The position numbers and the translations under genes are program-made. A stretch of DNA of 64,000 bases from an uncultured Anaeroplasmatales bacterium (GTDB lineage Bacteria > Bacillota_I > Bacilli_A > Acholeplasmatales > JAEDCM01): the NCBI GenBank assembly GCA_964634685.1, contig CAZWLD010000004.1, positions 12,430 through 76,429 of the forward strand, given 5' to 3'. Positions 37,525-55,736 of this stretch are shown piece after piece (position 1 is the stretch's first letter; each line of letters starts with the position of its first letter). Under the pieces are notes generated by a model. The model was not told the origin of the DNA. It worked only from the letters and a program-made list of their open reading frames with translations, and ran no database searches.

Positions 37525-38172
37525 ATGATTCAAATAGAAAAATTATCAAAAAAAATTAAAGGAAAAACCATTCTAAAAATTGATAACTTAATTATCGATA
37601 AACAATTTACCATTATCACAGGTAATTCAGGAGCTGGAAAATCAACTCTTTTGCGTGTTATTTCTACAATTGATTGTGATTATGATGGTAATGTTTTTAT
37701 TGATGGAGTTAATTTAAAAAACAAAGAGATAAACATTCCAATATTAAGAAACAAAAAAATGGGATTTATGTTTCAAGATTATTTATTGGATGAAAGACTA
37801 ACTGTTTTTGAGAATATTGAAATACCTTTATTAATTGCTGGATGTAGTAAAGAGGAAAGAAAAAAGCGAATTGCTGATGTTTTGGTTAAGGTTCATCTTG
37901 ATGAAATAAGTAATCAAAAAGCTAAAACCTTAAGTGGAGGCGAGAAGCAAAGAGTAGCTTATGCCCGGGCAATAATCAATAATCCTGAAATAATATTTGC
38001 GGACGAACCAACTTCTTCATTAGATGAAGGCAATGCTAAAGATATAATGGAAATGCTAAAGAAATTATCTAAAGAGGGCACAATGGTTGTCATGGTATCA
38101 CATGATGATGATTTATTTTGCTATGGTGATCAAATCATTACTCTTAAGAATGGGATGATTAGAGATGAATAG
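37525..38172 (+). CDS. ABC transporter ATP-binding protein (MacB/LolD-like)
   Basis: Walker A GNSGAGKST, signature LSGGEKQR and Walker B IFADEPT. Confidence 0.9.
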   Translation: MIQIEKLSKKIKGKTILKIDNLIIDKQFTIITGNSGAGKSTLLRVISTIDCDYDGNVFIDGVNLKNKEINIPILRNKKMGFMFQDYLLDERLTVFENIEIPLLIAGCSKEERKKRIADVLVKVHLDEISNQKAKTLSGGEKQRVAYARAIINNPEIIFADEPTSSLDEGNAKDIMEMLKKLSKEGTMVVMVSHDDDLFCYGDQIITLKNGMIRDE

Positions 38173-39226
38173 TATAAATCTAACTGCGAAGCCATATTTG
38201 ATTTACAAAAGAAGAGTAATTCTTGTCACAATGGCTGTTATTTTATTGATTACTTCAGTTTTTTCAATGCTTAGTCTTAAGAATGGTTGTGACGATTGTT
38301 TGAGGGAAAAATTAAATGAGATAGAAGGGTCTATTCAATTAAAAATTAGGTATCCATTTCAAGAACTTGAGAAAATTAAGAGTCTTTATTGCTTGAAATC
38401 GGATGTCTCTTTGGCTAGAATTGATGGATTTGATGAGCCTGTTTACATATCACAGTTTTATTCAAACATTCCTTCTGAACAAATAAATAATTATACTTCT
38501 ATTGGCGACTTCTATTTTTGCGGTGAAGATTACTATTATGGTGATACATTAAAATGTAAAATTAGTTTAGCAATTGCAAATCAGTTTTCGCTTCATGTTG
38601 GAGAATATATCAAATTAAGTGATGATAATCAAATATTATATATCTCGGATATTATCAATATTGGATCATCACAAAGAATTTCTATTCCGATAAATCTTTA
38701 CGAAAAAAGAGGAAGAATTAATCTATATCAGGGTGAATTTTTATTTGATGATTATGTCTTACTTAATAGTAATGGGTTAAAGAGTGATAACCTAAATATG
38801 TTTGTTTACTATGATACGGTAAAAATAATTAAGTCATTATTTTCAACATTGTCTAATGTATTTTTGGTTGTTTTGTTCTTATGTTATTTTGCTTACATAA
38901 TGACTTTTATTATAAGTAATAGGAAATATTTTTTGATTGAAAACTATTTAGGCATTTCTAAAAAGCGATTATTTTTTGAATATTTCATTATAAATTTGGT
39001 TCATACTGCTCTAATTGTTGTCGTTTCCTTGGGATTGATTATGATATCAAGTTCAAAAATTGTTGATAATTTAGGAAAAGCCTTTTCAGTAGAATCTTTG
39101 CAATTTGTTTTTGATGGACATTTCTTTATAGTAATTTCATTATCCTTATTTTTGTTATCATCATTGGTAATTTTCTTTTTCTTTATTACTTTGGCAAAAA
39201 GGGGGATAAATTATGTGGAAGATTAA
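38165..39226 (+). CDS. FtsX/MacB-type ABC permease
   Basis: Topology is TM1, then a soluble loop of about 180 aa, then three C-terminal TM helices. The start overlaps the ATPase gene. Confidence 0.7.
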   Translation: MNSINLTAKPYLIYKRRVILVTMAVILLITSVFSMLSLKNGCDDCLREKLNEIEGSIQLKIRYPFQELEKIKSLYCLKSDVSLARIDGFDEPVYISQFYSNIPSEQINNYTSIGDFYFCGEDYYYGDTLKCKISLAIANQFSLHVGEYIKLSDDNQILYISDIINIGSSQRISIPINLYEKRGRINLYQGEFLFDDYVLLNSNGLKSDNLNMFVYYDTVKIIKSLFSTLSNVFLVVLFLCYFAYIMTFIISNRKYFLIENYLGISKKRLFFEYFIINLVHTALIVVVSLGLIMISSSKIVDNLGKAFSVESLQFVFDGHFFIVISLSLFLLSSLVIFFFFITLAKRGINYVED

Positions 39227-40412
39227 ACATCTAATTAGAAATGTATTTTGTAATACATCATCATATTTATTATTGCTAATATCAATAACCGTTTTTTCTT
39301 CTTTATTCTTTTTTTATACCTCAACAAAAGCGGTTAAAGAGATAAAGGAAGAAAAACCAGAAATGTATCTAGCAAGCAATTATGTTTATTCTAAAGGATA
39401 TTCTGATTTAGATTATCCATATATTAAGGAAAGAATTGATGCAAAGCTTATTAGACATGTTCCCTTAAATCAAACATTTTATTTCAATGATTTGATTAGT
39501 GATAAAATCTCATCTGTTGTAATATATGTATCAAAAGATACCTCAAAATCAATAAATAGTGAATCTGATAATAAAAGGGTTACATTTTTAATAGGCTCTG
39601 AACCTAAGTCTTCAAATGAAGTTGTTGTAGGCGAAGAATTATTATCATGTTATAATCTTAATTATAAAAATGCAATTGGCAGTAAAATATCTTATAAATA
39701 TACAAATAATAGTGGAAGTATCATTGAATTCAAGGGTTTAACAATTTGTGGAATAATTAGTTCAGATATAAACAAATTATCTGGAATGAGTAATAAAAAA
39801 TCAAATTTATTTTGGTTATATGATGATTTAAATATTTTTGTGGATAGAAAACCAATCGAAGATACAATTTTTGATAGTGATGTTTTGATAGATGAAAGAA
39901 CATACTATTTTATGAAGGATTTTGCACATTTAGATGTGATGGTAGAAAATGGAAAGAGTAGAGGCTATGAAATGGTTTCTTCCGACCTTGATATTTTAAC
40001 AGTACTAGGGCTTATTTCTAGTAATGCTGTCGATAAAGCAATTACAATTGTTTGGGTTATCTTTGGGCCAATATTTATTTTTGTGGCCGGTGTAATGATT
40101 GTCTTTATATTAGAGCGCTTTTTAAATGAAAGATTGAGAGAAATAAAGATAATGAAATATTTAGGATTGGGCAAATTTTCTTTTGCAGTAATATTTGTTA
40201 TAGAATTATTTGTTTTGTTTTCGATTTCGGTCTTGGCTTCATATTTTATTGCTAATGCGCTATATTCTGCATTTTCTCATATGTTAAGCGAAAAATACAT
40301 GTGTGAACTTAGATATGATATTAATAAGGGTATTTGGCTTCTATTGATATTTTCGCTAATAGCTTTCTTAGTTGAAGTAGTTTTATTATATAGAAAGAAG
40401 AGGAATATTTAA
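39213..40412 (+). CDS. FtsX/MacB-type ABC permease (second subunit)
   Basis: Same topology: TM1, a loop of about 230 aa, then three TM helices. It overlaps the previous gene. Confidence 0.7.
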   Translation: MWKIKHLIRNVFCNTSSYLLLLISITVFSSLFFFYTSTKAVKEIKEEKPEMYLASNYVYSKGYSDLDYPYIKERIDAKLIRHVPLNQTFYFNDLISDKISSVVIYVSKDTSKSINSESDNKRVTFLIGSEPKSSNEVVVGEELLSCYNLNYKNAIGSKISYKYTNNSGSIIEFKGLTICGIISSDINKLSGMSNKKSNLFWLYDDLNIFVDRKPIEDTIFDSDVLIDERTYYFMKDFAHLDVMVENGKSRGYEMVSSDLDILTVLGLISSNAVDKAITIVWVIFGPIFIFVAGVMIVFILERFLNERLREIKIMKYLGLGKFSFAVIFVIELFVLFSISVLASYFIANALYSAFSHMLSEKYMCELRYDINKGIWLLLIFSLIAFLVEVVLLYRKKRNI

Positions 40413-42644: not shown

Positions 42645-44303
42645 ATGAAGCTATCACCACTTCAAAAAGCAAGATACCAATACAATCCTAAATTACCTGG
42701 AATGTTGAGAAATGGTATTGCTAGTATTTGTGTTAAGGAAGGAAATGAAACAGAGAGCGTTGCTGATCAAGAAAAAATCAAAGCTTTATTCCCTAATACA
42801 TATGGTAAAAAAGAAATTACATTTGAAAAAGGCATAAACACTTCAGTTGCAAAAAAACAAGTAGTAGGTGTTATTTTGTCAGGTGGTCAAGCCCCAGGAG
42901 GACACAATGTTGTTTGTGGACTTTACGATGCTTTAAAAGCCACTAATAAAGATAATGTTTTATTTGGATTTAAAAATGGTCCTGCTGGATTATTAGAAGA
43001 CAATTATTTAGTATTTGATGATGAATACATCGATCAATATCGTAATACTGGTGGATTTGATATTATCGGTTCTGGTCGTACAAAGCTTGAAACAAAGGAG
43101 CAATTTGCGGTTGCGGCTGAGGTTTGTAAAAAACATGGAATTACAGCTATCGTCATCATTGGTGGCGATGATTCCAACACTAATGCCGCTGTTTTAGCTG
43201 AATATTTTGCAGCTAACAACACAGGCGTTCAAGTTATTGGTTGTCCAAAAACAATTGATGGTGACTTAAAGAACGATGACATTGAATGCTCATTTGGTTT
43301 TGATACAGCTACTAAAACATATAGTGAAGTTATTGGAAATATTGAAAGAGATGCTAACTCAGCTAAAAAATATTGGCATTTTGTTAAGGTAATGGGACGT
43401 TCTGCATCACATGTTGCCTTAGAATGTGCATTACAAACTCAACCAAATATTTGCTTAATTTCCGAAGAGGTAGAGGCAAAGAAAATGTCTTTATCACAAA
43501 TCGCTGATTATATTGCGGATTCAGTCGAAAAAAGAGCAGCTAATGGAATGAATTTCGGTGTTGCGATTATTCCTGAGGGTGTTGTTGAATTTGTTCCTGA
43601 GTTCAAGGTATTAATTCAAGAAATCAATGAATTATTAGCTGGAGCTAAAGCCGAAGCCTTCAATGCTTTACCAACATGGGCTGAAAAATATGCCTTTATT
43701 GAAAAAGGATTAACTAAAGAATCAATGGCTGTTTTTGCGATTTTACCACAAACAATCCAACAACAATTATTCTTAGAAAGAGATCCTCACGGAAATGTTC
43801 AAGTTTCTTTAATTGAATCAGAAAAGCTATTCTCAGCTTTAGTTAAGGATAAATTAGATCAAAGAAAGAAAAACGGAACATATAATGGTAAATTTAATGC
43901 CCTACATCATTTCTTTGGTTACGAAGGAAGATGTGCGTTCCCATCAAATTTTGATGCTGACTATTGCTATTCATTAGGATACAATGCCTTTATGTTAATT
44001 CAATACGGATATAATGGATATTTATCAAAGGTTTCTAATTTATCTAAGCCAGCTGAGGAATGGGTTGCCGGCGGAATGCCAATCACAAAGATGATGAATA
44101 TGGAGCGTCGTCATGGTGAGGATAAACCAGTTATTCGTAAGGCTTTAGTTGATTTAAATGGTAAGCCATTCAAATTCTTTGAGGCTAATCGTGATACTTG
44201 GGCTGTCGAAACAGCATATACATATCCAGGCGCAATCCAATATTATGGACCATCTGAGGTTTGTGATTTAACTACTAGAACCTTAGCATTAGAAAAAGAA
44301 TAA
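42645..44303 (+). CDS. pfp: diphosphate--fructose-6-phosphate 1-phosphotransferase (long-form PPi-PFK)
   Basis: PFK motifs [16 protein letters not shown] and MGR in a 552-aa long-form architecture. Confidence 0.9.
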
Positions 44304-44727: not shown

Positions 44728-44756
44728 TTGAAAAGAGAAAAAAAATAAGATATAAT
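44728..44756 (+). promoter_or_regulatory. candidate promoter of the sensor operon
   Basis: TTGAAA, 17 nt, then TATAAT, located 27 nt upstream of ATG 44783. Confidence 0.4.
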
Positions 44757-44782: not shown

Positions 44783-46438
44783 ATGCGAAATGAAGTCAAA
44801 AAAAATATAGTATATATTGGCTGCTTTGTTGTTTTTTTGATAGCTGGTTTTTTTCAAGGTATTGATACTTATTTGCCCTATCCATATGATAGCTTTTTAA
44901 AAGTATCATCAAACCTTTTGTTTTTTTCGCTTTTAATTATTTGGACTCTTTCAATTAAAAATAGAATCATTCAAAAATCAACGAGAATGTCTCTTTTATT
45001 CATTGCCTGCTGTTTATTTTTTTGGATGATTCTTCGCTTTTATAAATATTACCTTTATTTAGGGGGACCTTTAATAGAGCGAATAATATGGTACCTATAC
45101 TATTTCCCTCAGCTTTTCGTTCCTCCAACGATGATTCTAGTTTCTTTGGGAATTGAAAGGAAAAATAATCAACCCTTAAAAAAATATTGGTATTTGCTTT
45201 ACCTTCCTGCCTTTGTTTTGTTTTCCTTTATCATCACCAATGAATTCCATCAATTAGCTTTTTCGATCTATCCAAAGACAGAATATACTTATTCATATAA
45301 GCATGAAATCATTTATTATTTAGCAATTGTTTGGATTTGCCTTACTATACTTTTAAGTATCATTGTTTTTACTGTTAAATCTTCCTTATCAACCGCAAGA
45401 AAAAAGGCTTGGATTCCAGTTTTTACAATCGTTTTTGCCTTTGTGTTCATCTTTATTAATTTTCAAATCGGCCATTTTTTTTATAATGATCCAGAATTGA
45501 TATCTTTCTTCTGTATTTTAATTATTGAAAGCTGTATCTACATTGGCTTGATTCCATCAAATGATAATTATGCTAATTATTTTAGGATTTCTAAAGCCTC
45601 AGCTATGATTGCGGATAATGATAATGAGATTGTCTATTTATCAAATAATTCGATTGATATTTCGAAAGAACAAATGGCCTCCGCAATTATCGATCCTCTT
45701 TATCTTGATGAAAATACGATATTATCCTCAAATAGAATTAATGGTGGTAATGTTTTTTATGTTGAGGATATCACAGAAATTAATGAATTAAATTCAGAAA
45801 TGAAACGAATTAATGAAAAGCTTGAGATGGAGAATTCATTAATCAAGGATGCTAATAAATTAAAAGAAAAAGAATTGCGAATTAATGAGCAAAATAAAAT
45901 ATATGATTCGGTTTCGGAATCAATCCATAACGAATTAAATATCGTTAATGATATTCTTAAGCAAACCTCGGCCCATAATGATGATTTTGAAATGAGAATA
46001 CGTTTGTCTTGCCTTTATATAGCATACATTAAAAGACTCAGTAATTTGATTGTTTCTAATTATGATAATGATTTGGTTAATTCAAAGGAATTAGAATATG
46101 CTTTAAAGGAGTCAGTTGATTATTTATCATTATGTGGCGTTGATTGTTCATTGTTAGCCTTTTGTGAGGATTTGGTTCCTATCCGAGTTATTAAAATGCT
46201 ATATTTGTTTTTCCAAACCTGTATTATTAAAGCTCTCCCTTCCTTATGCGCTATTATTGTAAGCTTGACAATTAATAAAAAAATCGTTTTTCGAATAACA
46301 TGTGATAATGCTAAAGCTTCTATAGATTCCTCGTTTTGTCAAGATGAGTTAGATAAGCTTGGTGGAAGTATTACGATTGAACAGCAGGATGATACGACAT
46401 ATTCAACCTTGTCTTTTGATTTGGGTGGTGATAAATGA
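44783..46438 (+). CDS. 8-TM sensor protein with a degenerate histidine-kinase C-terminus (probable pseudokinase)
   Basis: RBS GGGAGGG. About eight hydrophobic helices, a coiled-coil and a DHp-like SIHNELN motif. The CA-like tail (LGGSITIEQQDDTTYSTLSF) lacks recognisable N and G1/G2 boxes. Confidence 0.7.
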   Translation: MRNEVKKNIVYIGCFVVFLIAGFFQGIDTYLPYPYDSFLKVSSNLLFFSLLIIWTLSIKNRIIQKSTRMSLLFIACCLFFWMILRFYKYYLYLGGPLIERIIWYLYYFPQLFVPPTMILVSLGIERKNNQPLKKYWYLLYLPAFVLFSFIITNEFHQLAFSIYPKTEYTYSYKHEIIYYLAIVWICLTILLSIIVFTVKSSLSTARKKAWIPVFTIVFAFVFIFINFQIGHFFYNDPELISFFCILIIESCIYIGLIPSNDNYANYFRISKASAMIADNDNEIVYLSNNSIDISKEQMASAIIDPLYLDENTILSSNRINGGNVFYVEDITEINELNSEMKRINEKLEMENSLIKDANKLKEKELRINEQNKIYDSVSESIHNELNIVNDILKQTSAHNDDFEMRIRLSCLYIAYIKRLSNLIVSNYDNDLVNSKELEYALKESVDYLSLCGVDCSLLAFCEDLVPIRVIKMLYLFFQTCIIKALPSLCAIIVSLTINKKIVFRITCDNAKASIDSSFCQDELDKLGGSITIEQQDDTTYSTLSFDLGGDK

Positions 46439-47721
46439 TGAAGTTTTACGAGACGCCAATTGTTCTTCAGGAATACATATTAATTTTTTATACTATCTCC
46501 GCTTTATTAATGGTTATTAACTTAATCAATCAGGTTATATTAAAGTGGAATCTAAAAACGATTGCTTTGTTTGTTGTTTTAATCGTAAATGATGCTTTTT
46601 TGACAATGCTTTTGATTGATGGAATGTATTATTATAATTATGGTTATGATGTAGATTTGATCTTGATGAAGGTCATTAGCACTCCATTATGGCTTATTAT
46701 CATTCTTTTAGTGCTTTATTTAGCCTGCGGAATTGCTTGTAGCTATTTTCTTCATCGCTTTCGCAAACGTAAACTATCGCCGATGTCGATTAAAGAAAGT
46801 ATTGATCATTTGCCGGTTGGTATTTGTATTTATTCTAATGAGGGTAAACCTCGATTAATCAATAGCATAATTAATGAGCTATGCTTACAAACTACCGGTA
46901 GGGCGTTATTAAATGCGAATACCTTCTGGAGTCTTTTAGAGGAAGGTAAGGTTTTAGAAGGCTGTCTTGTTATAAAGGATGGAATTAATCCGATTATTCG
47001 TTTTACAAATGATAAAACATATTCCTTTTCAAGGTATGAGCACAATATTGATGGAATGATGTTCTATGAAATTGTGGCGGTTGATGTTACAATGGAATCA
47101 GAATTAAATTCGAAATTGAAAGAGAAGAATTATGAGCTTTCACAAATCAATACAAGCTTAAAAAAATATGGTGAAAATATATTGGAATACACTCACGAAA
47201 AAGAAAAACTAGCGACGAAAATTCGTATTCATGATGATATGGGAAAGCTTCTGTTATTTACGAAAAAGCAGCTATCTGAGCCTTTAAATGAAAATCAAAA
47301 AAATGATTTATTGAACACTTGGAAGGATACGCTTTTGGAATTTGGAAAAATAAAGGACGATACGGAAAAAACCTTTGATGAATTAAAAATAGCTGCCCAA
47401 TCCTTGGGAGTTGAAATCATTTTTAGTGGAATAAACCCTGATTATGATTTGGTTAGAAGAATTGTTATTAGCGCGGGAATTGAATGTATGACTAATACGG
47501 TCGCCCACGGTGAAGGCAATAAATTATTCATTGATATACAAAAGGATGATAATTGGATTATTAGGTTGTGGAATAACGGAAAGAATCCAGATGGAGATAT
47601 TAAGGAAGGAACAGGGCTTTCCTCTTTACGAAATATTGTGGAAAGCGAAGGAGGAATTATGAATTTTCTGTATGAACCTCAGTTTACGTTAAAAATAATC
47701 CTTACAGGGGGGAAATTATGA
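46435..47721 (+). CDS. membrane histidine kinase, HisKA_3 type
   Basis: ATGA overlap with the upstream gene. H-box RIHDDMGKLL, N-box-like CMTNTVAHG, and G2 GTGLSSLRNIVESEGG. Confidence 0.8.
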   Translation: MMKFYETPIVLQEYILIFYTISALLMVINLINQVILKWNLKTIALFVVLIVNDAFLTMLLIDGMYYYNYGYDVDLILMKVISTPLWLIIILLVLYLACGIACSYFLHRFRKRKLSPMSIKESIDHLPVGICIYSNEGKPRLINSIINELCLQTTGRALLNANTFWSLLEEGKVLEGCLVIKDGINPIIRFTNDKTYSFSRYEHNIDGMMFYEIVAVDVTMESELNSKLKEKNYELSQINTSLKKYGENILEYTHEKEKLATKIRIHDDMGKLLLFTKKQLSEPLNENQKNDLLNTWKDTLLEFGKIKDDTEKTFDELKIAAQSLGVEIIFSGINPDYDLVRRIVISAGIECMTNTVAHGEGNKLFIDIQKDDNWIIRLWNNGKNPDGDIKEGTGLSSLRNIVESEGGIMNFLYEPQFTLKIILTGGKL

Positions 47722-48371
47722 AGGATGGAAAATACTTAGTAATGGTTGTGGAAGACCAGGAAATGCCACGTCAATTATTTGAACAATTCATTAAACAATC
47801 GGATTGCTTTTTGTTGGCAATTTCAATTGCCAATGCTGAATATGCGGAAATATATTGTATGAATAATGCAATTGATTTGATTTTAATGGATGTTTTTACA
47901 AAGGAAGGACAAAATGGTCTTCAAGCTGCCGAAAAAATCAAACGAAAATATCCACATATTAAAATAATCATCGTTACATCAATGCCTGAATGCTCCTACA
48001 TCGATCGAGCAAAGGCCATTGGGGTCGAGGGATTCTGGTATAAGGATACCAGCAAGGATACAATTCTTTCCTTGATGAATCGCGTAATAAAGGGTGAGAA
48101 TGTCTATCCCGAAATGTCACAACCCGTTATGATTGGTTTAGTAAATAGCACCGAATTCACGAAAAGAGAAATTGAAATTTTACGAGAAATGACGGGAGGC
48201 TATAGTAATCAGGAGATTGGGGAAAAGCTTGGTATATCGGTTAATGTTGTCAGAAATCACATTTCCAATATGCTTGAGAAAACTGGTTTTCGCTCACGAA
48301 CACAGCTAGCGGTAAAAGCAAGGTCCACGGGTTTGGTTATTTTAGATAAGTCCGAGGATGATATCGATTAG
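47718..48371 (+). CDS. NarL/LuxR-family response regulator
   Basis: Receiver domain (VVEDQ, LILMDV, IIIVTS, YK) plus a LuxR HTH (TKREIEILREMTGGYSNQEIGEKLGISVNVVRNHISNM). Confidence 0.9.
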   Translation: MKDGKYLVMVVEDQEMPRQLFEQFIKQSDCFLLAISIANAEYAEIYCMNNAIDLILMDVFTKEGQNGLQAAEKIKRKYPHIKIIIVTSMPECSYIDRAKAIGVEGFWYKDTSKDTILSLMNRVIKGENVYPEMSQPVMIGLVNSTEFTKREIEILREMTGGYSNQEIGEKLGISVNVVRNHISNMLEKTGFRSRTQLAVKARSTGLVILDKSEDDID

Positions 48372-48391
48372 GTTATACACTTGATATGGAG

Positions 48392-48416
48392 AGTCACATT
48401 TTTGTGACTTTTTTTG
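48392..48416 (+). terminator. rho-independent terminator after the regulator gene
   Basis: AGTCACA-TTTT-TGTGACT followed by T7. Confidence 0.85.
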
Positions 48417-48420
48417 TTAA

Positions 48421-48465
48421 GGGTTACAAATGTAACTACTCATCCTCATAAATTGATGATAGAAT
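48421..48465 (+). promoter_or_regulatory. operator-promoter copy A: GGGTTACAAATGTAACT palindrome plus an extended -10 TGATAGAAT
   Basis: GTTACA-AA-TGTAAC at 48423..48436 and TAGAAT at 48460..48465. The same 17-mer and the same spacing recur at 52436..52480. Confidence 0.6.
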
Positions 48466-48510: not shown

Positions 48511-51500
48511 ATGAATAGATTTACGAAAAGCATAGGAAAAATCTTTTTCTTACTATGCTTATTATTAACCGTATCTTTAGCGGTAAATAGTAATCCTGGC
48601 AAAGTGTATGCTGCTGATGCCGAAGGTATTAGCGTTACTCGTGACAATACGGATGGAACTAAGACGGGATCAGGATGGACCTGGACAAAAACAGGTAGTA
48701 ATCAGTCAGGAAAATTATCTTTAAACGGCTATAACGGTGGAAGAATTGCAATTGGAGGTCCGGTTGGAGATACTGAAATTGAACTTATAGGAGACAACAC
48801 GGTTACTGTTACCGAGCCATATATTGATGGTGGTAATATCTGCTATGGGATTATCGTTTGTAATGCTCAAAACCTCACATTTAGTGGAAGTGGAACCCTC
48901 ACTATAAATGTTATGGCAACTTCAATGGTGAAGGTTTGTGGCGTTTATATTTATAAGGATAACGCTGTATCTTTAGGAAATCTTGTTTTTAGCGAAGGTA
49001 CAGTAAGCATTAATGTTACGTGCTTGAATTTGTCAGATGGAGGCGGAGCATACGGCATCAATTCATATGAAATGACAACCGGTGGATCCGTTACTGTTTC
49101 TGAAAATGCAACCCTTAAGATTGACTTGAAGTCTGATTATTATGGCAATGCATATGGAGTTTATTCATACGGAGATATCATATTAAATGGAACAGTTAGT
49201 TCGAAAATGGAGTATACAGGATCTAGTAATCCGAATAATTATTGGAGAGATTTTTCTTCTAATAGTTCACAAAATGTGATTGGTCTAAATGCAATTATTG
49301 ATTCGTATAATCCTGGTACAAGTGGAACATTATTAGGTTATTTTGCACTTGAAGCTAATAGCAATACAAAGATTGAAACTTGGACTTTAGTAGGATCAGA
49401 AGAAAAGTATTTTGAAAATGATAATTGCTTTGTCCATATTTCTGAAGTGAATGTTTACAGTGGATATGCAAGGTATTCATATCGTAAAATAGAGACTCCA
49501 CTTACCTTTGAGGATAAGGATGAATATGATATTCCAGAGATTGTATATGGTAATGAGGCATATTCAGCTCCTTTTGTCGCAACTGGTGGTAGTGGAGAAT
49601 ATACCTATACAATATATAGTGTTGCAAATGGTAATCAAACAGGTCTTAGAATTGTTGATAACAAATTATGCTCATCTGGTAGAGGAGTAAGTGAAGCTAC
49701 AACCTGTACGATTCAGGTAATGGATAAGGGTGGATACACAAAATACATCATTGTCAATATTGGTGCGGTTGTTGCGCCAACCTATAGTGCTACTGTTGAT
49801 GATATCGATTTTGGTACCGTTAAACCTGGATATGAATCAGTTACTGCCGTTCCTATTAATATTCATAATACAGGTACTGGAAATATAAAAATTATTTCTA
49901 ATAGTTCAGTATATCTCAGTAGTCAAAGTTATTTTATTTTAACATATGATAGTGTGCCATCATTAATTAATGGTGGTGAAACAAACACAAGCTGGAGTAT
50001 CAAACCTAAGGATGGCTTATCAGTTGGTACATACACCGTGACGATAACATTTAGAGGTACACCAGAATTACCAGGATTTTCAGGTGAAATCCAAGTTTCC
50101 GCAAAAGTTACTTTTGTTGTAAGTGACCATAATTTTGATACATCAAAATGGGAACATGATGATGAAAAGCACTGGAATCCATGTAAGGATGCTTTATGTA
50201 CTGCTCATGGTAATGAAGCTTTACACGATAAAGATGGTGAATTAACAGGTTATTATCCTGCAACTGAAGAAACAAATGGATATACTGGTGATAGGCATTG
50301 CTCAGTGTGCGGAGCTATATCTGAATATGGAGAAGTTATTTTTGCTAACAAGATTAATAGTGTTGAATTAGGATTTTCATCAGGAACTGATGAAATGATT
50401 GTTAGAGGAAGTAGTTATAATTTTAAGGCAAAAGTTATTGGCACAGGTTCTTTTGATAACACGATTAAGTGGATTGTAGAAGGCGGTTCGACAGGTACAA
50501 CTATATCGTCTGATGGTGTATTAACAGTAGCAGCAAACGAGGTTAATTCAACCATTACGATAAAAGCAGTTGCCAATGGCGATAATGAAGTCTTTGCCAC
50601 AAAAGTCCTTGATGTTTATTCAGAAGTAACTATTGTTAATGGAACTGAAACAACAGATTATTATTTAGTAGGTCAAACTATTGATCTTGCGGCTATAGAG
50701 GCAAGCGAAGGATATCATTTTAAAAACTGGACTAAAGATGGCTATGGATCCTTTACTAACGATAAAGCTAAAAATGCTCAGTTTATTGTCGCAAATTCCA
50801 ATGTAACTATTACATCAAATTATGAATTACATTATACAAATGATACAGTATGGACACATAATGCAACAAGTCATTACCATTTCTGTATATGTGGAGAAAA
50901 AATTGATATTGAAGATCATGTTTATGATAATGATGTAGATACAACTTGTAATGTTTGCGGATATGAAAGACCAGCCCATACTCATACAGCTGATAGTGAA
51001 TGGCATTATGATAATGATAATCATTGGCATATTTGTACAATTAATGGTTGTACCGAAAAGCTTAATGTTGAGGAGCATTCCTTTGGCAATTGGACGGTTA
51101 CAGTAGAGCCACAGGTTGGTGTTGCTGGTGAAAAGAAACGTGAATGTACAATTTGTGGATATAGTGAAACCGCTCCTGTTGATGCCCTTATCGAACAAAT
51201 CACTGTAACAGTTAATGGAGGAAAAGTTAATGGTGGCGCAAGTGTAACAGTTGACAAGAATGGTTCCGTTACAGTTGTTGCGGATTCAGCTCCAGAAGGA
51301 AAAGAATTTAAAGGCTGGAGTAAGGATGGTGGAGAAACAATCCTAAGTGAGGATTCAAGCTATACCTTCAACGCAACCGAAAATGTTACACTTACAGCGA
51401 TTTATAAGGATATAAAATCAAAAGGACTTTCTGGTGGTGCCATTGCTGGAATTGTAATTGGCAGTGTTGTTGTTATCGGAATCGGAGGATTTTCTATTTT

Positions 51501-51558
51501 TTGGTTTGGTATTAAGAAAAAGAAGTTCACAGACCTTCTAGCAGTTTTTAAAAAGTAA
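48511..51558 (+). CDS. 1015-aa surface protein: signal peptide, beta-helix-like repeats, Ig-like/Listeria-Bacteroides-type repeats, three His/Cys modules, C-terminal TM anchor
   Basis: The signal sequence ends in VYA/AD. Repeats follow a G(V/I)Y...(L/V)T(F/V)S..GT(L/V).I pattern. G.HFKNW and FKGW repeat signatures are present. His/Cys modules lie at 50128..50313, 50830..50964 and 50977..51162. The C-terminal hydrophobic helix is followed by KKKK, with no LPXTG motif. Confidence 0.85.
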   Translation: MNRFTKSIGKIFFLLCLLLTVSLAVNSNPGKVYAADAEGISVTRDNTDGTKTGSGWTWTKTGSNQSGKLSLNGYNGGRIAIGGPVGDTEIELIGDNTVTVTEPYIDGGNICYGIIVCNAQNLTFSGSGTLTINVMATSMVKVCGVYIYKDNAVSLGNLVFSEGTVSINVTCLNLSDGGGAYGINSYEMTTGGSVTVSENATLKIDLKSDYYGNAYGVYSYGDIILNGTVSSKMEYTGSSNPNNYWRDFSSNSSQNVIGLNAIIDSYNPGTSGTLLGYFALEANSNTKIETWTLVGSEEKYFENDNCFVHISEVNVYSGYARYSYRKIETPLTFEDKDEYDIPEIVYGNEAYSAPFVATGGSGEYTYTIYSVANGNQTGLRIVDNKLCSSGRGVSEATTCTIQVMDKGGYTKYIIVNIGAVVAPTYSATVDDIDFGTVKPGYESVTAVPINIHNTGTGNIKIISNSSVYLSSQSYFILTYDSVPSLINGGETNTSWSIKPKDGLSVGTYTVTITFRGTPELPGFSGEIQVSAKVTFVVSDHNFDTSKWEHDDEKHWNPCKDALCTAHGNEALHDKDGELTGYYPATEETNGYTGDRHCSVCGAISEYGEVIFANKINSVELGFSSGTDEMIVRGSSYNFKAKVIGTGSFDNTIKWIVEGGSTGTTISSDGVLTVAANEVNSTITIKAVANGDNEVFATKVLDVYSEVTIVNGTETTDYYLVGQTIDLAAIEASEGYHFKNWTKDGYGSFTNDKAKNAQFIVANSNVTITSNYELHYTNDTVWTHNATSHYHFCICGEKIDIEDHVYDNDVDTTCNVCGYERPAHTHTADSEWHYDNDNHWHICTINGCTEKLNVEEHSFGNWTVTVEPQVGVAGEKKRECTICGYSETAPVDALIEQITVTVNGGKVNGGASVTVDKNGSVTVVADSAPEGKEFKGWSKDGGETILSEDSSYTFNATENVTLTAIYKDIKSKGLSGGAIAGIVIGSVVVIGIGGFSIFWFGIKKKKFTDLLAVFKK

Positions 51559-52435: not shown

Positions 52436-52480
52436 GGGTTACAAATGTAACTCCTCTCTTTTTTTTATTGATGATAAAAT
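52436..52480 (+). promoter_or_regulatory. operator-promoter copy B: GGGTTACAAATGTAACT palindrome plus an extended -10 TGATAAAAT
   Basis: GTTACA-AA-TGTAAC at 52438..52451 and TAAAAT at 52475..52480. The distance from palindrome centre to the -10 is identical to copy A. Confidence 0.6.
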
Positions 52481-52512: not shown

Positions 52513-52893
52513 ATGAAAAGAGTGATATTATCAATAAGCAATTCCTTAGTTAATGATGCTGTTAAAAATGCATTAAAGCAAGTGGGATATTTAGTTCAAT
52601 CAGTTCCTTCATATAAAACAGATGACGTTGTCAATTCCTGTGATGCTTTTTTTGCTAACCTTTTATTGATGGATGTTAATCGCGTTGGTTCAGATATCAA
52701 TGTTCGTCTTGAAACCATTGATAAGGTAAAAAAACAAAATCCGAAAATTAAAATTGCTTTGTTGTGTGATAATGTTTCAGATCCAGAAATAGCTTATAAG
52801 ATTAAACAAGCAAAAGAAGAAAAAATCATTGATTCATTTTTTTATGAATCGGTTAGTATGGATTATATGATTGATATCCTCGATTCATTGTAA
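52513..52893 (+). CDS. stand-alone receiver-like (pseudo-receiver) protein
   Basis: CheY-like length and pattern, with LLLMDV at the phospho-Asp position. However, the N-terminal acidic pair is replaced (ILSISNS), the T/S position is Cys (ALLCD), and no conserved Lys lies in FFYES. Confidence 0.6.
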   Translation: MKRVILSISNSLVNDAVKNALKQVGYLVQSVPSYKTDDVVNSCDAFFANLLLMDVNRVGSDINVRLETIDKVKKQNPKIKIALLCDNVSDPEIAYKIKQAKEEKIIDSFFYESVSMDYMIDILDSL

Positions 52894-53423: not shown

Positions 53424-55736
53424 ATGCAAAAGAAATCAATTTTAAGCTTAGCCATTATGGCAATGTTAATCGTTGGATTAACCTTAACTGGTTGTGGCAA
53501 ATCGCACAAATATAACGAAAATTGGTCTTCTGATGCCGAAAATCATTGGCATGCTTGCGAAGATAAAAATTGCGATAAAAAGAAGGATGTTGCAACCCAT
53601 ACATTTGATGAAGGAGTAGTTACAGTTGAACCAGGTATTGGTACAAAGGGTGTAAAAACTTATACCTGTAGCGTATGTAATTACCAAAAAACGGAAGAGA
53701 TTCCAGCAATTGACCACACTCATGTGGCTGGAAGTACTTGGGAGAAAGATGCTACAAATCACTGGACTTTATGTACCTGTGGTGAAAAAATGGATGTGGC
53801 TGCCCATACATTTGATGAAGGAGTAGTTACAGTTGAACCAGGTATTGGTACAAAGGGTGTAAAAACTTATACCTGTAGCGTATGTAATTACCAAAAAACG
53901 GAAGAGATTCCAGCAATTGACCACACTCATGTGGCTGGAAGTACTTGGGAGAAAGATGCTACAAATCACTGGAATTTATGTGAATGCGGTGAAAAAATGA
54001 ATGTCGCAGTTCATATTTCTAGTGATTGGATTGTTGATAATGAACCAGATTATGGTGTTAAAGGTAACAGTCATAAGGAATGTACTGTTTGTGGATTTGT
54101 TCTTGAAGAAAAAGAGACTGATGCCCCTCCAGCTAAGGATGTAACCATTACTTATGATGTTGAATTAGATAAGACATATGATGGTACTCCGGTAGCCTTT
54201 AATATCGCTGATGTAGTTGTTTCTAATGGCGCAACTCCAGTAGCTGAATGGTATAAGGTTGATGGTGAAAGCAACGCTACGAAGATTGAAAATGTACCTG
54301 TTGATGCTGGAACTTATAAGTTATTACTAAAGACTTTAGGAACTGCTGAATGGAAGGAAGCAACCCTTTCAGTTGATGTTCTTATTTTCACAAAATTTGG
54401 TGAAATTGAAGTTACAAAGGTTTTAGATAAAGTTTATGATGGCGAAGCTGTTTCTTTAAGTGATTCGGATATTACTGGAAATAGTGATGATCTAAGCTAC
54501 ACTATCACTTGGTATAATTATACAACTGATCATCCTGATTATGTGCTTGCTGAAGCACCAAAGGATGCTGGAAATTATACAGTGAAGGTTGAAATGGCTG
54601 AAACAAATAATGTTAGTAAAGCTTCATTTGTTGTTAACTTTGATATTTCAAGACGTACATTGTATTATGGTCAAACATATGCATACGGAAATCCAAATTA
54701 TTTAAACCCAAATCTTACTTGGGAAATCGGTGATACTTATTCTAATAATGGCTTTAAATCTACAAATAAAGTAGAAGGTGATTATGTTGCAATCAATTTC
54801 TGCTTTGATAATATTTATGTTGGTTCAAATTTAAGTGTATTTAAAATTGACGAAGCAGCTTGTATTGCTCATAATAGTAAAGCTCATTTAAATTATGTCT
54901 TAGATACAGAGGTTAAACCAGTGATTGTTCCGAAGAAATTAACTAATCTTAATTTAGTAACGGAATATAACGGCGAAAAAGGAAGACCTAATTTTGTATT
55001 AACAGCTGCCGATGGAATATTTGAGGATGATGATGTAAGAGTAGTAATCTCTGGTAATGCTCTAAGCTGGGATGCTTTGACCGAATTAACATTATCCTTA
55101 GCTGACAACATTGTTGGTGATGAAACTATTTCCTTTGTTGAGGAAGGTGAGTACGCAAACTATGTCTTGACTCTTACTGGTGACTATGTTGGAACACTTA
55201 CAATTAATCAAAAGGTTTTAACTAATCTTGATTTACAAACATATTATGATGAAACAGCCGGAAGAACAAATTTTGTTTTAACTGAAGCTGATGGAATTGT
55301 GGCTGGTGAGTCCGTTTTTGTAAATATTTCAGGAGATAATTCCAGTGATTGGGGAGAAGGAGATTCATATGTCTTGCGTTTAAAGGGAACTGTTCAAGGT
55401 GAAGAAACTATTACTTTAGTTGAAAATGAAAATTCATCAAACTATATTTTAGTAGAAAAAGATGGTAGCGTTGGAACAATTACAATTAATCATTCTGTTA
55501 TTCTAAAGAATATTACCTTCAAGGCTTCTCAAGGAATATTTTCTAATCGATTTGGATTTAAAACTTGGATATTTTCGCTAACTAATGAGACAGGACTTGA
55601 AGCTGGTGATACTGTAAATATTAGTGTTAAAGTATTTGATAATAGCGGTAAAATTAGCTTAACAAAAGAGAATACTTCATTTAATAATAAGAAATATTTT
55701 ATTGGTAGTGGTTGCTATCTTGATTTAGATAACTAA
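53424..55736 (+). CDS. 770-aa surface lipoprotein with three tandem His/Cys modules and Ig-like repeats
   Basis: Lipobox LTGC. Modules lie at 53505..54095. Repeated segments of about 90 aa follow (KV/TYDG..V ... AG.Y pattern). Confidence 0.85.
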   Translation: MQKKSILSLAIMAMLIVGLTLTGCGKSHKYNENWSSDAENHWHACEDKNCDKKKDVATHTFDEGVVTVEPGIGTKGVKTYTCSVCNYQKTEEIPAIDHTHVAGSTWEKDATNHWTLCTCGEKMDVAAHTFDEGVVTVEPGIGTKGVKTYTCSVCNYQKTEEIPAIDHTHVAGSTWEKDATNHWNLCECGEKMNVAVHISSDWIVDNEPDYGVKGNSHKECTVCGFVLEEKETDAPPAKDVTITYDVELDKTYDGTPVAFNIADVVVSNGATPVAEWYKVDGESNATKIENVPVDAGTYKLLLKTLGTAEWKEATLSVDVLIFTKFGEIEVTKVLDKVYDGEAVSLSDSDITGNSDDLSYTITWYNYTTDHPDYVLAEAPKDAGNYTVKVEMAETNNVSKASFVVNFDISRRTLYYGQTYAYGNPNYLNPNLTWEIGDTYSNNGFKSTNKVEGDYVAINFCFDNIYVGSNLSVFKIDEAACIAHNSKAHLNYVLDTEVKPVIVPKKLTNLNLVTEYNGEKGRPNFVLTAADGIFEDDDVRVVISGNALSWDALTELTLSLADNIVGDETISFVEEGEYANYVLTLTGDYVGTLTINQKVLTNLDLQTYYDETAGRTNFVLTEADGIVAGESVFVNISGDNSSDWGEGDSYVLRLKGTVQGEETITLVENENSSNYILVEKDGSVGTITINHSVILKNITFKASQGIFSNRFGFKTWIFSLTNETGLEAGDTVNISVKVFDNSGKISLTKENTSFNNKKYFIGSGCYLDLDN
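53596..53973 (+). repeat. tandem duplication with a 207-nt period and a 171-nt perfectly identical core
   Basis: 53596..53766 is identical to 53803..53973, and the flanks diverge. The repeat duplicates one His/Cys module exactly. Confidence 0.92.

Follow-up and report, generated by a model that had tools for sequence, protein, structure and literature searches.

A candidate split sensor in gut Clostridia and Bacilli: a predicted HisKA_7TM pseudokinase encoded beside a DesK-class kinase and a NarL-type regulator

Control of a live kinase by a dead protein that keeps the kinase fold is an established concept (RocA, FasC, DivL, RetS); to our knowledge, such steering pseudo-histidine kinases are known from a few genetically studied cases and are usually deemed oddities. 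Here we describe a trio of adjacent genes, P1, P2 and P3, in a 64,000-nucleotide stretch of contig CAZWLD010000004.1 (assembly GCA_964634685.1) from an uncultured Anaeroplasmatales bacterium, referred to as the window. P1 encodes a predicted kinase-fold membrane protein that lacks the catalytic residues, P2 a kinase of the DesK class and P3 a response regulator. With moderate confidence, we read the trio as a split sensor in which P1 senses, P2 phosphorylates, translational coupling keeps the two in fixed proportion and P3 activates the adjacent surface-protein genes. The logic of the few described cases would here take the form of a fixed, translationally coupled gene pair that spans 1,854 sequence clusters and at least 569 species representatives, mostly of uncultured gut Clostridia and Bacilli.

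RocA of Streptococcus pyogenes is a polytopic, catalytically dead membrane protein with kinase-like DHp (dimerisation and histidine phosphotransfer) and CA (catalytic and ATP-binding) domains; it interacts with the bona fide sensor kinase CovS and modulates the phosphorylation of CovR (PMC7028121). In the FasB-FasC-FasA "three-component" system of the same species, two kinase-like membrane proteins associate with each other, either as a heterodimer or in a larger oligomer, and it was proposed that FasC is a sensing pseudokinase while the other protein supplies the catalytic domain (PMC12675982). DivL of Caulobacter crescentus is a pseudo-histidine kinase that carries Tyr in place of the phospho-acceptor His, keeps the histidine kinase fold and controls the active kinase CckA (PMC5361649). 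In Pseudomonas aeruginosa, the kinase-fold protein RetS regulates GacS, a second protein of this fold, by touching it directly, and the DHp dimerisation interface takes part in the contact (PMC8498467); RetS and GacS can each form homodimers as well, as cited in another source (PMC12675982). The RedCDEF "four-component" system of Myxococcus xanthus combines the action of two receiver proteins with that of a kinase and a kinase-like protein (PMC2755868).

The gene trio and its relatives

The three open reading frames lie on the forward strand between 44783 and 48371, and the stop codon of each overlaps the start of the next through the tetranucleotide ATGA (Table 1). We counted synteny in 80 fetched loci, 78 of which have room for a P2 gene and 72 for a P3 gene. 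A P2 homologue follows P1 directly in 78/78 loci with room, and a P3 homologue follows P2 in 69/72. Of the 78 P1/P2 junctions, 63 are 4-nt overlaps, and 61 of these read ATGA. The remaining P1/P2 junctions are overlaps of 1–14 nt or gaps of 0–2 nt, save for two irregular loci: in L037 P2 is cut off by the contig end and the junction is also ATGA, and in L040 P2 is called 247 nt downstream. Where the P2/P3 junction is not a 4-nt overlap (69 loci compared), it is mostly a short overlap or a small gap. In one locus, L044 (8712–10662), an insertion-sequence transposase stands after P2 in place of the regulator gene. As gene order and tight junctions recur across relatives, the triplet and its translational coupling are conserved and no accident of this genome. 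A preliminary description of this DNA had reported three genes joined by two ATGA overlaps and had proposed counting how often the triplet co-occurs; the genes and both overlaps are real, the recurrence of the P1/P2 overlap is not chance, and the counts above bear out the co-occurrence.

Relatives of P1 are numerous, and many are full-length proteins of ~550 aa whose sole annotation is PF16927. The species count given above comes from a degenerate-pattern scan with one genome per species; the carriers are mostly uncultured gut Clostridia and Bacilli, among them Enteromonas, Coprobacillus, Faecalibacterium, Acutalibacteraceae, Blautia and Anaerovoracaceae, and a cultured strain, Blautia sp. HCP28S3_G10 (L076), also has the locus. 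When 1.84 billion representatives were searched exhaustively with a P1 profile, 1,854 clusters passed E ≤ 1e-30 and 3,339 passed E ≤ 1e-3, and the best 150 profile matches all span the whole profile. P1 is under purifying selection, with N153, H156, K417, R418, N421 and E443 invariant. As P1 is kept at full length in 1,854 clusters with invariant residues, it is maintained by selection and is not a decaying pseudogene. NCBIfam assigned neither P1 nor P2 to a family, the cytoplasmic half of P1 and the DHp domain of P2 fall outside every curated family, and the source records leave the proteins without names. Our literature search found no publication on the P1 family; the mentions of HisKA_7TM that it found concern archaeal kinases.

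Two kinds of unusual relatives were recorded. Three P1 relatives, P0163 (808 aa), P0272 (769 aa) and P0280 (772 aa), carry ~220–230 extra N-terminal residues; this stretch is strongly hydrophobic and, by eye, resembles a second multi-helix membrane module (P0163 and P0272 inspected). A 961-aa in-frame P1–P2 fusion (protein P0190, L081:3001-5886) was not counted as Rosetta-stone evidence. An A6 run adjoins the fusion junction, and an indel of 1 nt there would bring back a stop codon 5 nt before the P2 start and so part the two genes; the fused frame may reflect slippage or an artefact of assembly.

A kinase-like scaffold and a DesK-class kinase

HisKA_7TM (PF16927) is the sole Pfam match of P1 (residues 47–247, 32.7 bits against a cutoff of 28.6), and the same model is matched by 81 of 82 P1 relatives (best E 1.4e-13); weak sub-threshold matches to Rnf-Nqr and ABC2_membrane were also seen. 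AlphaFold2 and topology prediction add one N-terminal helix beyond the HisKA_7TM region, which gives eight transmembrane helices with an N-in/C-in topology consistent with the positive-inside rule. A short beta-hairpin is modelled between helices 5 and 6. The conserved membrane residues are K88, R100, W103, Y104, T152-N153-D154-x-H156 and P237-E238, and the predicted topology puts the invariant polar ones at the outward-facing tips of helices 3, 4, 5 and 8 and beside the extracytoplasmic hairpin.

The AlphaFold2 model of P1 (predicted local distance difference test score, pLDDT, 84; 82-sequence alignment) runs from the eight membrane helices through a PAS-like sheet, a 64-residue helix (331–394) and a return helix (402–425) to an alpha/beta domain (431–546). 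In the models, the elements of this last domain follow the order of the P2 CA domain, with a 12-residue loop at the position of the ATP lid. The top Foldseek matches of P1 are kinases built of PAS or LOV, DHp and CA domains; against the PDB they include the LOV kinase YF1 (3e-7), the phosphotransferase ChpT (8e-6), DesK (4e-5) and also KinB. When isolated CA domains were compared with P1, VraS gave a template-modelling score of 0.69 and DosS one of 0.72. P1 is thus predicted, from these models, to have a DHp hairpin and a CA-type alpha/beta fold.

The sequence of P1 gives no such signal. None of 82 P1 relatives matches the HisKA or HATPase Pfam models at E ≤ 1, neither phmmer with P1 nor the P1 family profile matched a kinase in the PDB, and BLASTP of P1 against P2 is insignificant (E 0.045). 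The N-box Asn, the G1 glycines, the G2 box and the lid motif are conserved in none of ~230 P1 relatives; the positions aligned to the N-box Asn hold E or I, and the other aligned sites hold D, E or S and never glycine. No cytoplasmic column of P1 reaches 10–15% His. We infer that P1 is a pseudokinase that keeps the histidine kinase fold and fails to bind ATP or to autophosphorylate.

Much of what the preliminary description had said of P1 agrees with these results. The eight transmembrane helices are predicted, the C-terminal alpha/beta domain has the CA fold in the AlphaFold2 model and in the Foldseek comparison, and the N, G1 and G2 boxes are gone; the suggested profile check for catalytic boxes that might have been missed found none in P1 (82 relatives) and detected HATPase_c in 18 of 25 P2 relatives. 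One claim fell. The "retained DHp-like His" of the SIHNELN motif (H382, codon 45926–45928) is a chance residue, with His in 2 of 79 syntenic proteins and in 0 of 148 family representatives. H382 was rejected as a vestigial phospho-acceptor, as its column holds K, R, S or A in relatives. The proposal that P1 is a sensory co-receptor gains from the DHp-CA fold, the loss of the motifs, selection on P1, its pairing with P2 and the complementary conservation described below, and loses the His that it had cited.

What is conserved in the cytoplasmic half of P1 is of another kind. Tyr374 is present in 144/149 P1 sequences and K417 and R418 in 149/149, and E436, E443-S444 and Y474..F477-E478 are further conserved residues. 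The hhalign alignment of P1 with P2 places Y374 on the phospho-acceptor H266 of P2, but this alignment is not significant. In the models H266 of P2 lies 14 residues before the end of helix 1, and Y374 and H382 of P1 lie 20 and 12 residues before it, so the geometry is ambiguous. Y374 as a His-to-Tyr counterpart of the H-box His, in the manner of DivL, may be taken as a lead only.

The AlphaFold2 model of P2 (pLDDT 83) has three membrane helices, a PAS domain, a long helix bearing H266 (codon 47230–47232), a return helix and a CA domain. The P2 protein of the window has no Pfam match at E ≤ 1, and 0/25 of its relatives match Pfam HisKA_3 (PF07730) at that threshold. A single-sequence search gave weak matches to the CA domains of VraS, DevS and DosT. 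The P2 family profile, searched against the PDB, matched the DHp and CA domains of DesK (residues 8–223) with E 2e-11, its "aKiriHDelGk" aligned on "LHDTLGQ" of DesK, and matched the CA domains of DosT, DevS and VraS at 2.5e-12 to 3e-7. In the fold search the best matches besides PAS-containing kinases were DesK structures, and DesK was the best DHp-CA fold match. P2 is assigned to the DesK class because of the PDB profile and fold searches, not because of Pfam. The label "HisKA_3 kinase" of the preliminary description needs correction in that the Pfam model does not detect P2 and the G1 box is atypical.

Conservation in P2 was scored on translations from the 80 fetched loci, which yielded 73 syntenic relatives; a separate P2 profile search gave 10 proteins. 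The H-box (RIHDDMGKLL) and the G2 box, both of which had been read from the sequence beforehand, are present and conserved. H266, D267 and G270 of the H-box are invariant or nearly so, as are E350, N354, H358 and A359 of the N-box, and G382 is also invariant (H266 73/73, E350 73/73, N354 73/73, H358 72/73). The G2 box reads E391-G-G-G394-L-x-x-L-R399 (G394 72/72, R399 72/72). At the G1 position the Asp that contacts adenine is replaced by Asn, N380, in 72/72 sequences and is followed by D or N; the window has N-N-G (codons 380–382, 47572–47580). N380 aligns with the first D of "DDG" in both DesK and DosT. Replacement of Asp by Asn at the G1 position impairs ATP binding in other GHKL ATPases. 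Since the remaining residues of the P2 nucleotide pocket are invariant, the pocket is nevertheless likely to be functional as judged from conservation. How GHKL kinases recognise nucleotides is a question of its own that the invariant Asn raises. The Gln of the DxxxQ motif, which follows the His and is an established phosphatase motif in NarX-type kinases, is replaced in P2: at position H+5, 31 of 73 sequences have K, 21 have R and 6 have H, and Gln is not among the six commonest residues.

The two proteins are conserved in complementary parts. In the membrane region, P1 has a mean pairwise identity of 35% with 20/254 columns at least 90% conserved, as compared to 19% and 0/112 for P2. In the DHp return helix the values are 52% and 4/24 for P1, and 24% and 1/23 for P2. 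The order is reversed in the CA or CA-like domain, the least conserved part of P1 (28%, 3/116 columns); here P2 reaches 42% with 22/111 columns. Because the bundle of P1 is conserved and that of P2 is not, and the CA domain of P2 is conserved and that of P1 is not, the pattern supports a split between a sensing pseudokinase and a catalytic kinase. It is the pattern expected if P1 were to hold the input site and P2 the catalytic one, with the P2 helices as an anchor or contact surface.

The regulator, its candidate operator and the surrounding genes

By its sequence P3 is a normal regulator of the NarL/LuxR (FixJ) family that is predicted to accept phosphate, in line with the LuxR type first assigned to it. 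The P3 protein of the window matches Pfam Response_reg (2.4e-15) and GerE (6.2e-16), NCBIfam calls it NarL-like with scores below the equivalog cutoffs, and the receiver residues E12-D13, D58, T87 and K109 are complete and conserved in 68 sequences.

The 64 kb of the window hold just two perfect copies of the palindrome GTTACAAATGTAAC; allowing one mismatch gives four matches in all, with 0.7 expected by chance. A near-identical −10-like TGATGATA(G/A)AAT follows each perfect copy at a distance of ~20 nt and reads TGATGATAGAAT at the copy behind P3 and TGATGATAAAAT at the second copy. In other clades the layout is the same, with arms that co-vary around a CAAATG-like core, and perfect 5-4-5 inverted repeats occur in 11/27 upstream regions, as compared to 5% of shuffles. 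A clade variant, GTGCCNAATGGCAC, is present once per locus in 14 loci and always just after the regulator gene (L003:9704-9717, L012:4242-4255); these loci include ones in which the surface-protein gene, and not the small-protein gene, comes next. Judging from position and recurrence, the palindrome is a likely operator of the LuxR-type regulator, and the genes behind it are candidate direct targets. No copy lies upstream of P1 within the window, so autoregulation is not indicated.

The gene directly behind the first palindrome encodes a 1015-aa surface protein and is a probable target of the trio; overall, the trio probably controls the neighbouring surface-protein genes. The repeated His/Cys motifs of these large secreted proteins are of the H..H...C..C type (for example, "CSVCG", "CNVCGYERPAH" and "CTICGYSE"), and homologues of the genes at 48511–51558 and 53424–55736 lie downstream of the trio in 22–23 loci. 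A gene for a small protein, 126 aa in the window, is found downstream of the regulator gene in 25/55 loci with room, nearly always directly after it (L003:9800-10183, L081:6636-7022). The 126-aa protein has no Pfam match. The best PDB match of its family profile is the receiver domain 2qxy (E 0.005), with "LLMDV" on the phospho-Asp strand; D or E is kept on this strand, the N-terminal acidic pair is missing, and the by-eye Thr/Ser and Lys positions hold Cys-Asp and Glu/Ala-Ser. From these features it looks like an atypical or pseudo-receiver.

Signals for a single transcription unit flank the trio. The ATG of P1 (44783) is preceded by a GGGAGGG ribosome-binding site 8 nt upstream, and the best sigma-70-like match of the region lies just 5' of P1. 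Because this match overlaps an alternative TTG start at 44756, the ATG at 44783 is more likely to be where P1 begins. The window is low in G+C (about 0.27–0.36). Promoter-like sites are no more numerous in this region than expected from shuffles, so that the position of the match at 44728..44756 is suggestive only. The hairpin behind P3 was recovered by RNA folding and was not called in the scan for consensus terminators. With a ribosome-binding site and promoter-like match 5' of P1 and a hairpin 3' of P3, the trio looks like one transcription unit.

Table 1. Positions in the window of the trio, its predicted domains and signals, and the genes downstream
Feature	Position	Strand	Details
P1	44783–46438	+	551 aa, counted from the ATG
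P1 8-helix membrane bundle	44783..45544	+	Residues 1–254; from Pfam, AlphaFold2 helices and topology prediction
P1 PAS-like beta-sheet domain	45599..45769	+	Residues 273–329, AlphaFold2 strands; G321-G322 and D329 invariant
P1 DHp-like hairpin	45773..46057	+	Residues 331–425; L373-Y374-D375 and Y415-I-K417-R418-x-S-N421-L near-invariant
P1 CA-like alpha/beta domain	46073..46420	+	Residues 431–546; without N-box Asn, G1 or G2 glycines
P2	46435–47721	+	428 aa; membrane anchor 1–112 (3 helices), PAS 116–217, DHp with H266, CA 314–424
P3	47718–48371	+	217 aa
Sigma-70-like promoter match	44728..44756	+	TTGAAA-17-TATAAT, 11/12 consensus positions; best match of the region, just 5' of P1
P1 stop/P2 start overlap	46435..46438	+	ATGA; 4-nt overlap kept in 63/78 loci
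P2 stop/P3 start overlap	47718..47721	+	ATGA; 4-nt overlap in 29/69 loci
Terminator-like hairpin and T-run	48388..48418	+	Directly 3' of the P3 stop; fold −12.4 kcal/mol, z −5.4 against shuffles
Palindrome GTTACAAATGTAAC, putative P3 operator	48423..48436		~20 nt upstream of −10-like TGATGATAGAAT, 88 nt before the surface-protein gene
Palindrome GTTACAAATGTAAC, second copy	52438..52451		−10-like TGATGATAAAAT downstream, 75 nt before the receiver-like gene
Secreted, anchored surface protein	48511..51558	+	1015 aa; Cys/His-rich motifs, Flg_new repeats, C-terminal membrane anchor
Atypical single-domain receiver-like protein	52513..52893	+	126 aa; family 126–128 aa
Surface protein	53424..55736	+	770 aa; MBG domain, Cys/His-rich N-terminal repeats; akin to downstream genes elsewhere

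The genes upstream of the trio (37525–40412 and 42645–44303, both on the forward strand) encode an ABC ATPase, two FtsX-type permeases, a pyridoxal phosphate-dependent enzyme, a helix-turn-helix protein and a 552-aa phosphofructokinase. None of these neighbours recurs beside the trio in the other loci.

Readings of the pair and comparison with described systems

As a split sensor, the trio would work as follows. The eight-helix bundle of P1, with its outward polar invariant residues, would perceive a membrane or extracellular cue, and the PAS-like, DHp-like and CA-like scaffold behind it would neither accept nor donate phosphate. P1, produced together with P2 by translational coupling, would control P2, whose own membrane region would be a mere anchor. 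P2 would autophosphorylate on H266 and pass the phosphate to D58 of P3. Phosphorylated P3 would then bind the palindrome GTTACAAATGTAAC, whose centre falls near position −40 of the promoters that directly follow, and turn on the genes for the large Cys/His-rich surface proteins and the small atypical receiver. The contact between P1 and P2 might run through the DHp helices, as in the heterodimer suggested by the preliminary description, or just as well through the membrane helices, as in RocA and CovS, or through the PAS domains.

Several observations weigh against this reading. An hhalign comparison of the profiles of the C-terminal halves of P1 and P2 is not significant (E 0.06, probability <1%) and, with the sequence searches negative, the kinase ancestry of P1 is argued solely from the predicted fold. 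The Asn in the G1 box makes the activity of P2 less certain. The two nearest relatives, L001 (2874–4157) and L002 (3232–4515), are orphan pairs with no adjacent regulator gene. The conserved synteny would also fit a P1 that acts on the regulator and not on the kinase. The structure models of P1 and P2 are both of monomers. Gene order and coupling, the predicted folds, the motifs lost and kept, the complementary conservation and the conserved palindrome are observed here; that P1 and P2 touch, and by which surfaces, whether P1 acts positively or negatively, what ligand it has and that P3 binds the palindrome are points that we infer.

A more elaborate form of the split sensor is speculative and, in our estimate, rather unlikely. 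P1 and P2 would form an obligate hetero-oligomer to which P1 would contribute the ligand-binding bundle and a dead scaffold, with a patch of Tyr374 and K417-R418-N421 in place of the H-box, and P2 would contribute catalysis only, with its Asn-type G1 box and without DxxxQ. The atypical receiver would close a loop on P1 like that of DivK and DivL. If true, the trio and the receiver would make up a four-part circuit, not described before, for the display of surface proteins in hundreds of species of gut Firmicutes.

P1 might also act much as DivL or RedE does, its dead DHp surface binding phosphorylated P3 or the small receiver without relaying an external signal, and either feeding back on P2 or serving as a phosphate sink or phosphatase scaffold. 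The most conserved cytoplasmic part of P1 is the DHp return helix (52% identity; K417, R418 and N421 invariant), the region at which receivers dock in canonical complexes of histidine kinase and response regulator such as DesK-DesR. A gene for an atypical single-domain receiver accompanies the trio in 25/55 loci, but it is missing from more than half of the loci while P1 is always there. A near-invariant Tyr stands where hhalign puts the His of P2, and DivL, with Tyr for His, binds phosphorylated DivK (PMC5361649); the equivalence of Y374 and H266 is without statistical support. A precedent for a kinase and a kinase-like protein working with two regulators is RedCDEF (PMC2755868). The strongly conserved outward-facing membrane residues argue that P1 has an input function of its own. 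We regard this alternative as unlikely, and receiver binding by P1 would in any case be compatible with the split sensor.

It is very improbable that P1 is an active, non-canonical kinase or phosphotransfer protein running parallel to P2, for example with a remodelled pocket or through phosphorylation of Y374. In favour of such activity, the CA-like fold is kept, Tyr374 is near-invariant, and acidic positions persist in the family (E478 in 120/149, E482 in 134/149, D or E at 508). P1 of the window lacks even E478 and E482, which are Q and I, and none of ~230 relatives has the N-box Asn, the G1 and G2 glycines or the lid motif. The CA-like domain is the part of P1 that has drifted furthest, with 28% identity and 3/116 conserved columns. 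ChpT, a top structural match, likewise has a CA-like domain that is nucleotide-free. The notion that P1 is independent of P2, as a transporter, membrane enzyme or other scaffold that is merely co-regulated with it, can draw on HisKA_7TM being a generic membrane module (Pfam: N-terminal 7TM region only) and on the weak sub-threshold Rnf-Nqr and ABC2_membrane matches, but it is hardly credible given that P1 and P2 are adjacent in 78/78 loci across Clostridia and Bacilli, with stop and start codons that overlap or abut in almost every case, that the cytoplasmic half of P1 is a signalling-type PAS-DHp-CA scaffold, and that the membrane part of P2 has no conserved residue able to sense.

The split sensor is directly testable, with the predicted operator and the adjacent genes for Cys/His-rich surface proteins as a direct experimental read-out. 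The strict pairing of P1 and P2 also provides a large natural data set on signalling from a dead to a live kinase, for example for the analysis of covariation between the two proteins.

The rocA gene is located elsewhere on the chromosome than covRS, and CovS/CovR belong to the HisKA/OmpR class, not to the DesK/NarL class. RetS, a hybrid protein of the kinase fold that also bears receiver domains, is encoded away from gacS. RocA and CovS resemble P1 and P2 in joining a catalytically dead, kinase-like membrane protein to a bona fide kinase (PMC7028121). The likeness of RocA to P1 is one of architecture. RocA has six predicted transmembrane helices and a dispensable His, H246, at the predicted phospho-acceptor site (PMC7028121), as compared to eight helices and no conserved His in P1. 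The Fas system is like P1-P2-P3 in placing two kinase-like membrane proteins and one regulator in one operon (PMC12675982), an analogy of architecture only. In FasC the CA domain alone is dispensable and the phospho-acceptor His, H246, is kept and essential, whereas P1 has no conserved His; FasA uses a ComE-like site and drives a small RNA gene (PMC12675982), whereas P3 has a GerE output domain and P2 is DesK-like.

DivL is like P1 a dead protein of the histidine kinase fold beside a live kinase, although the equivalence of P1 Y374 to the His is not established. The input of DivL is a phosphorylated single-domain regulator, a reversal of signal flow, and DivL has multiple PAS domains where P1 has a 7TM/8TM sensor; nor has DivL been shown to be operon-coupled to its kinase, unlike P1 and P2 (PMC5361649). 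RetS is inhibitory (PMC8498467). The parts list of RedCDEF corresponds to P2, P1, P3 and the 126-aa receiver-like protein, while the domain families are others, the role is developmental and no 7TM sensor is described (PMC2755868). The trio thus differs from the RocA, FasC, DivL and RetS systems in carrying a HisKA_7TM sensor on a DesK/NarL-class core, in the full loss of the His from P1, in a strict operon coupling that extends over hundreds of species and in a partner kinase with an Asn-type G1 box.

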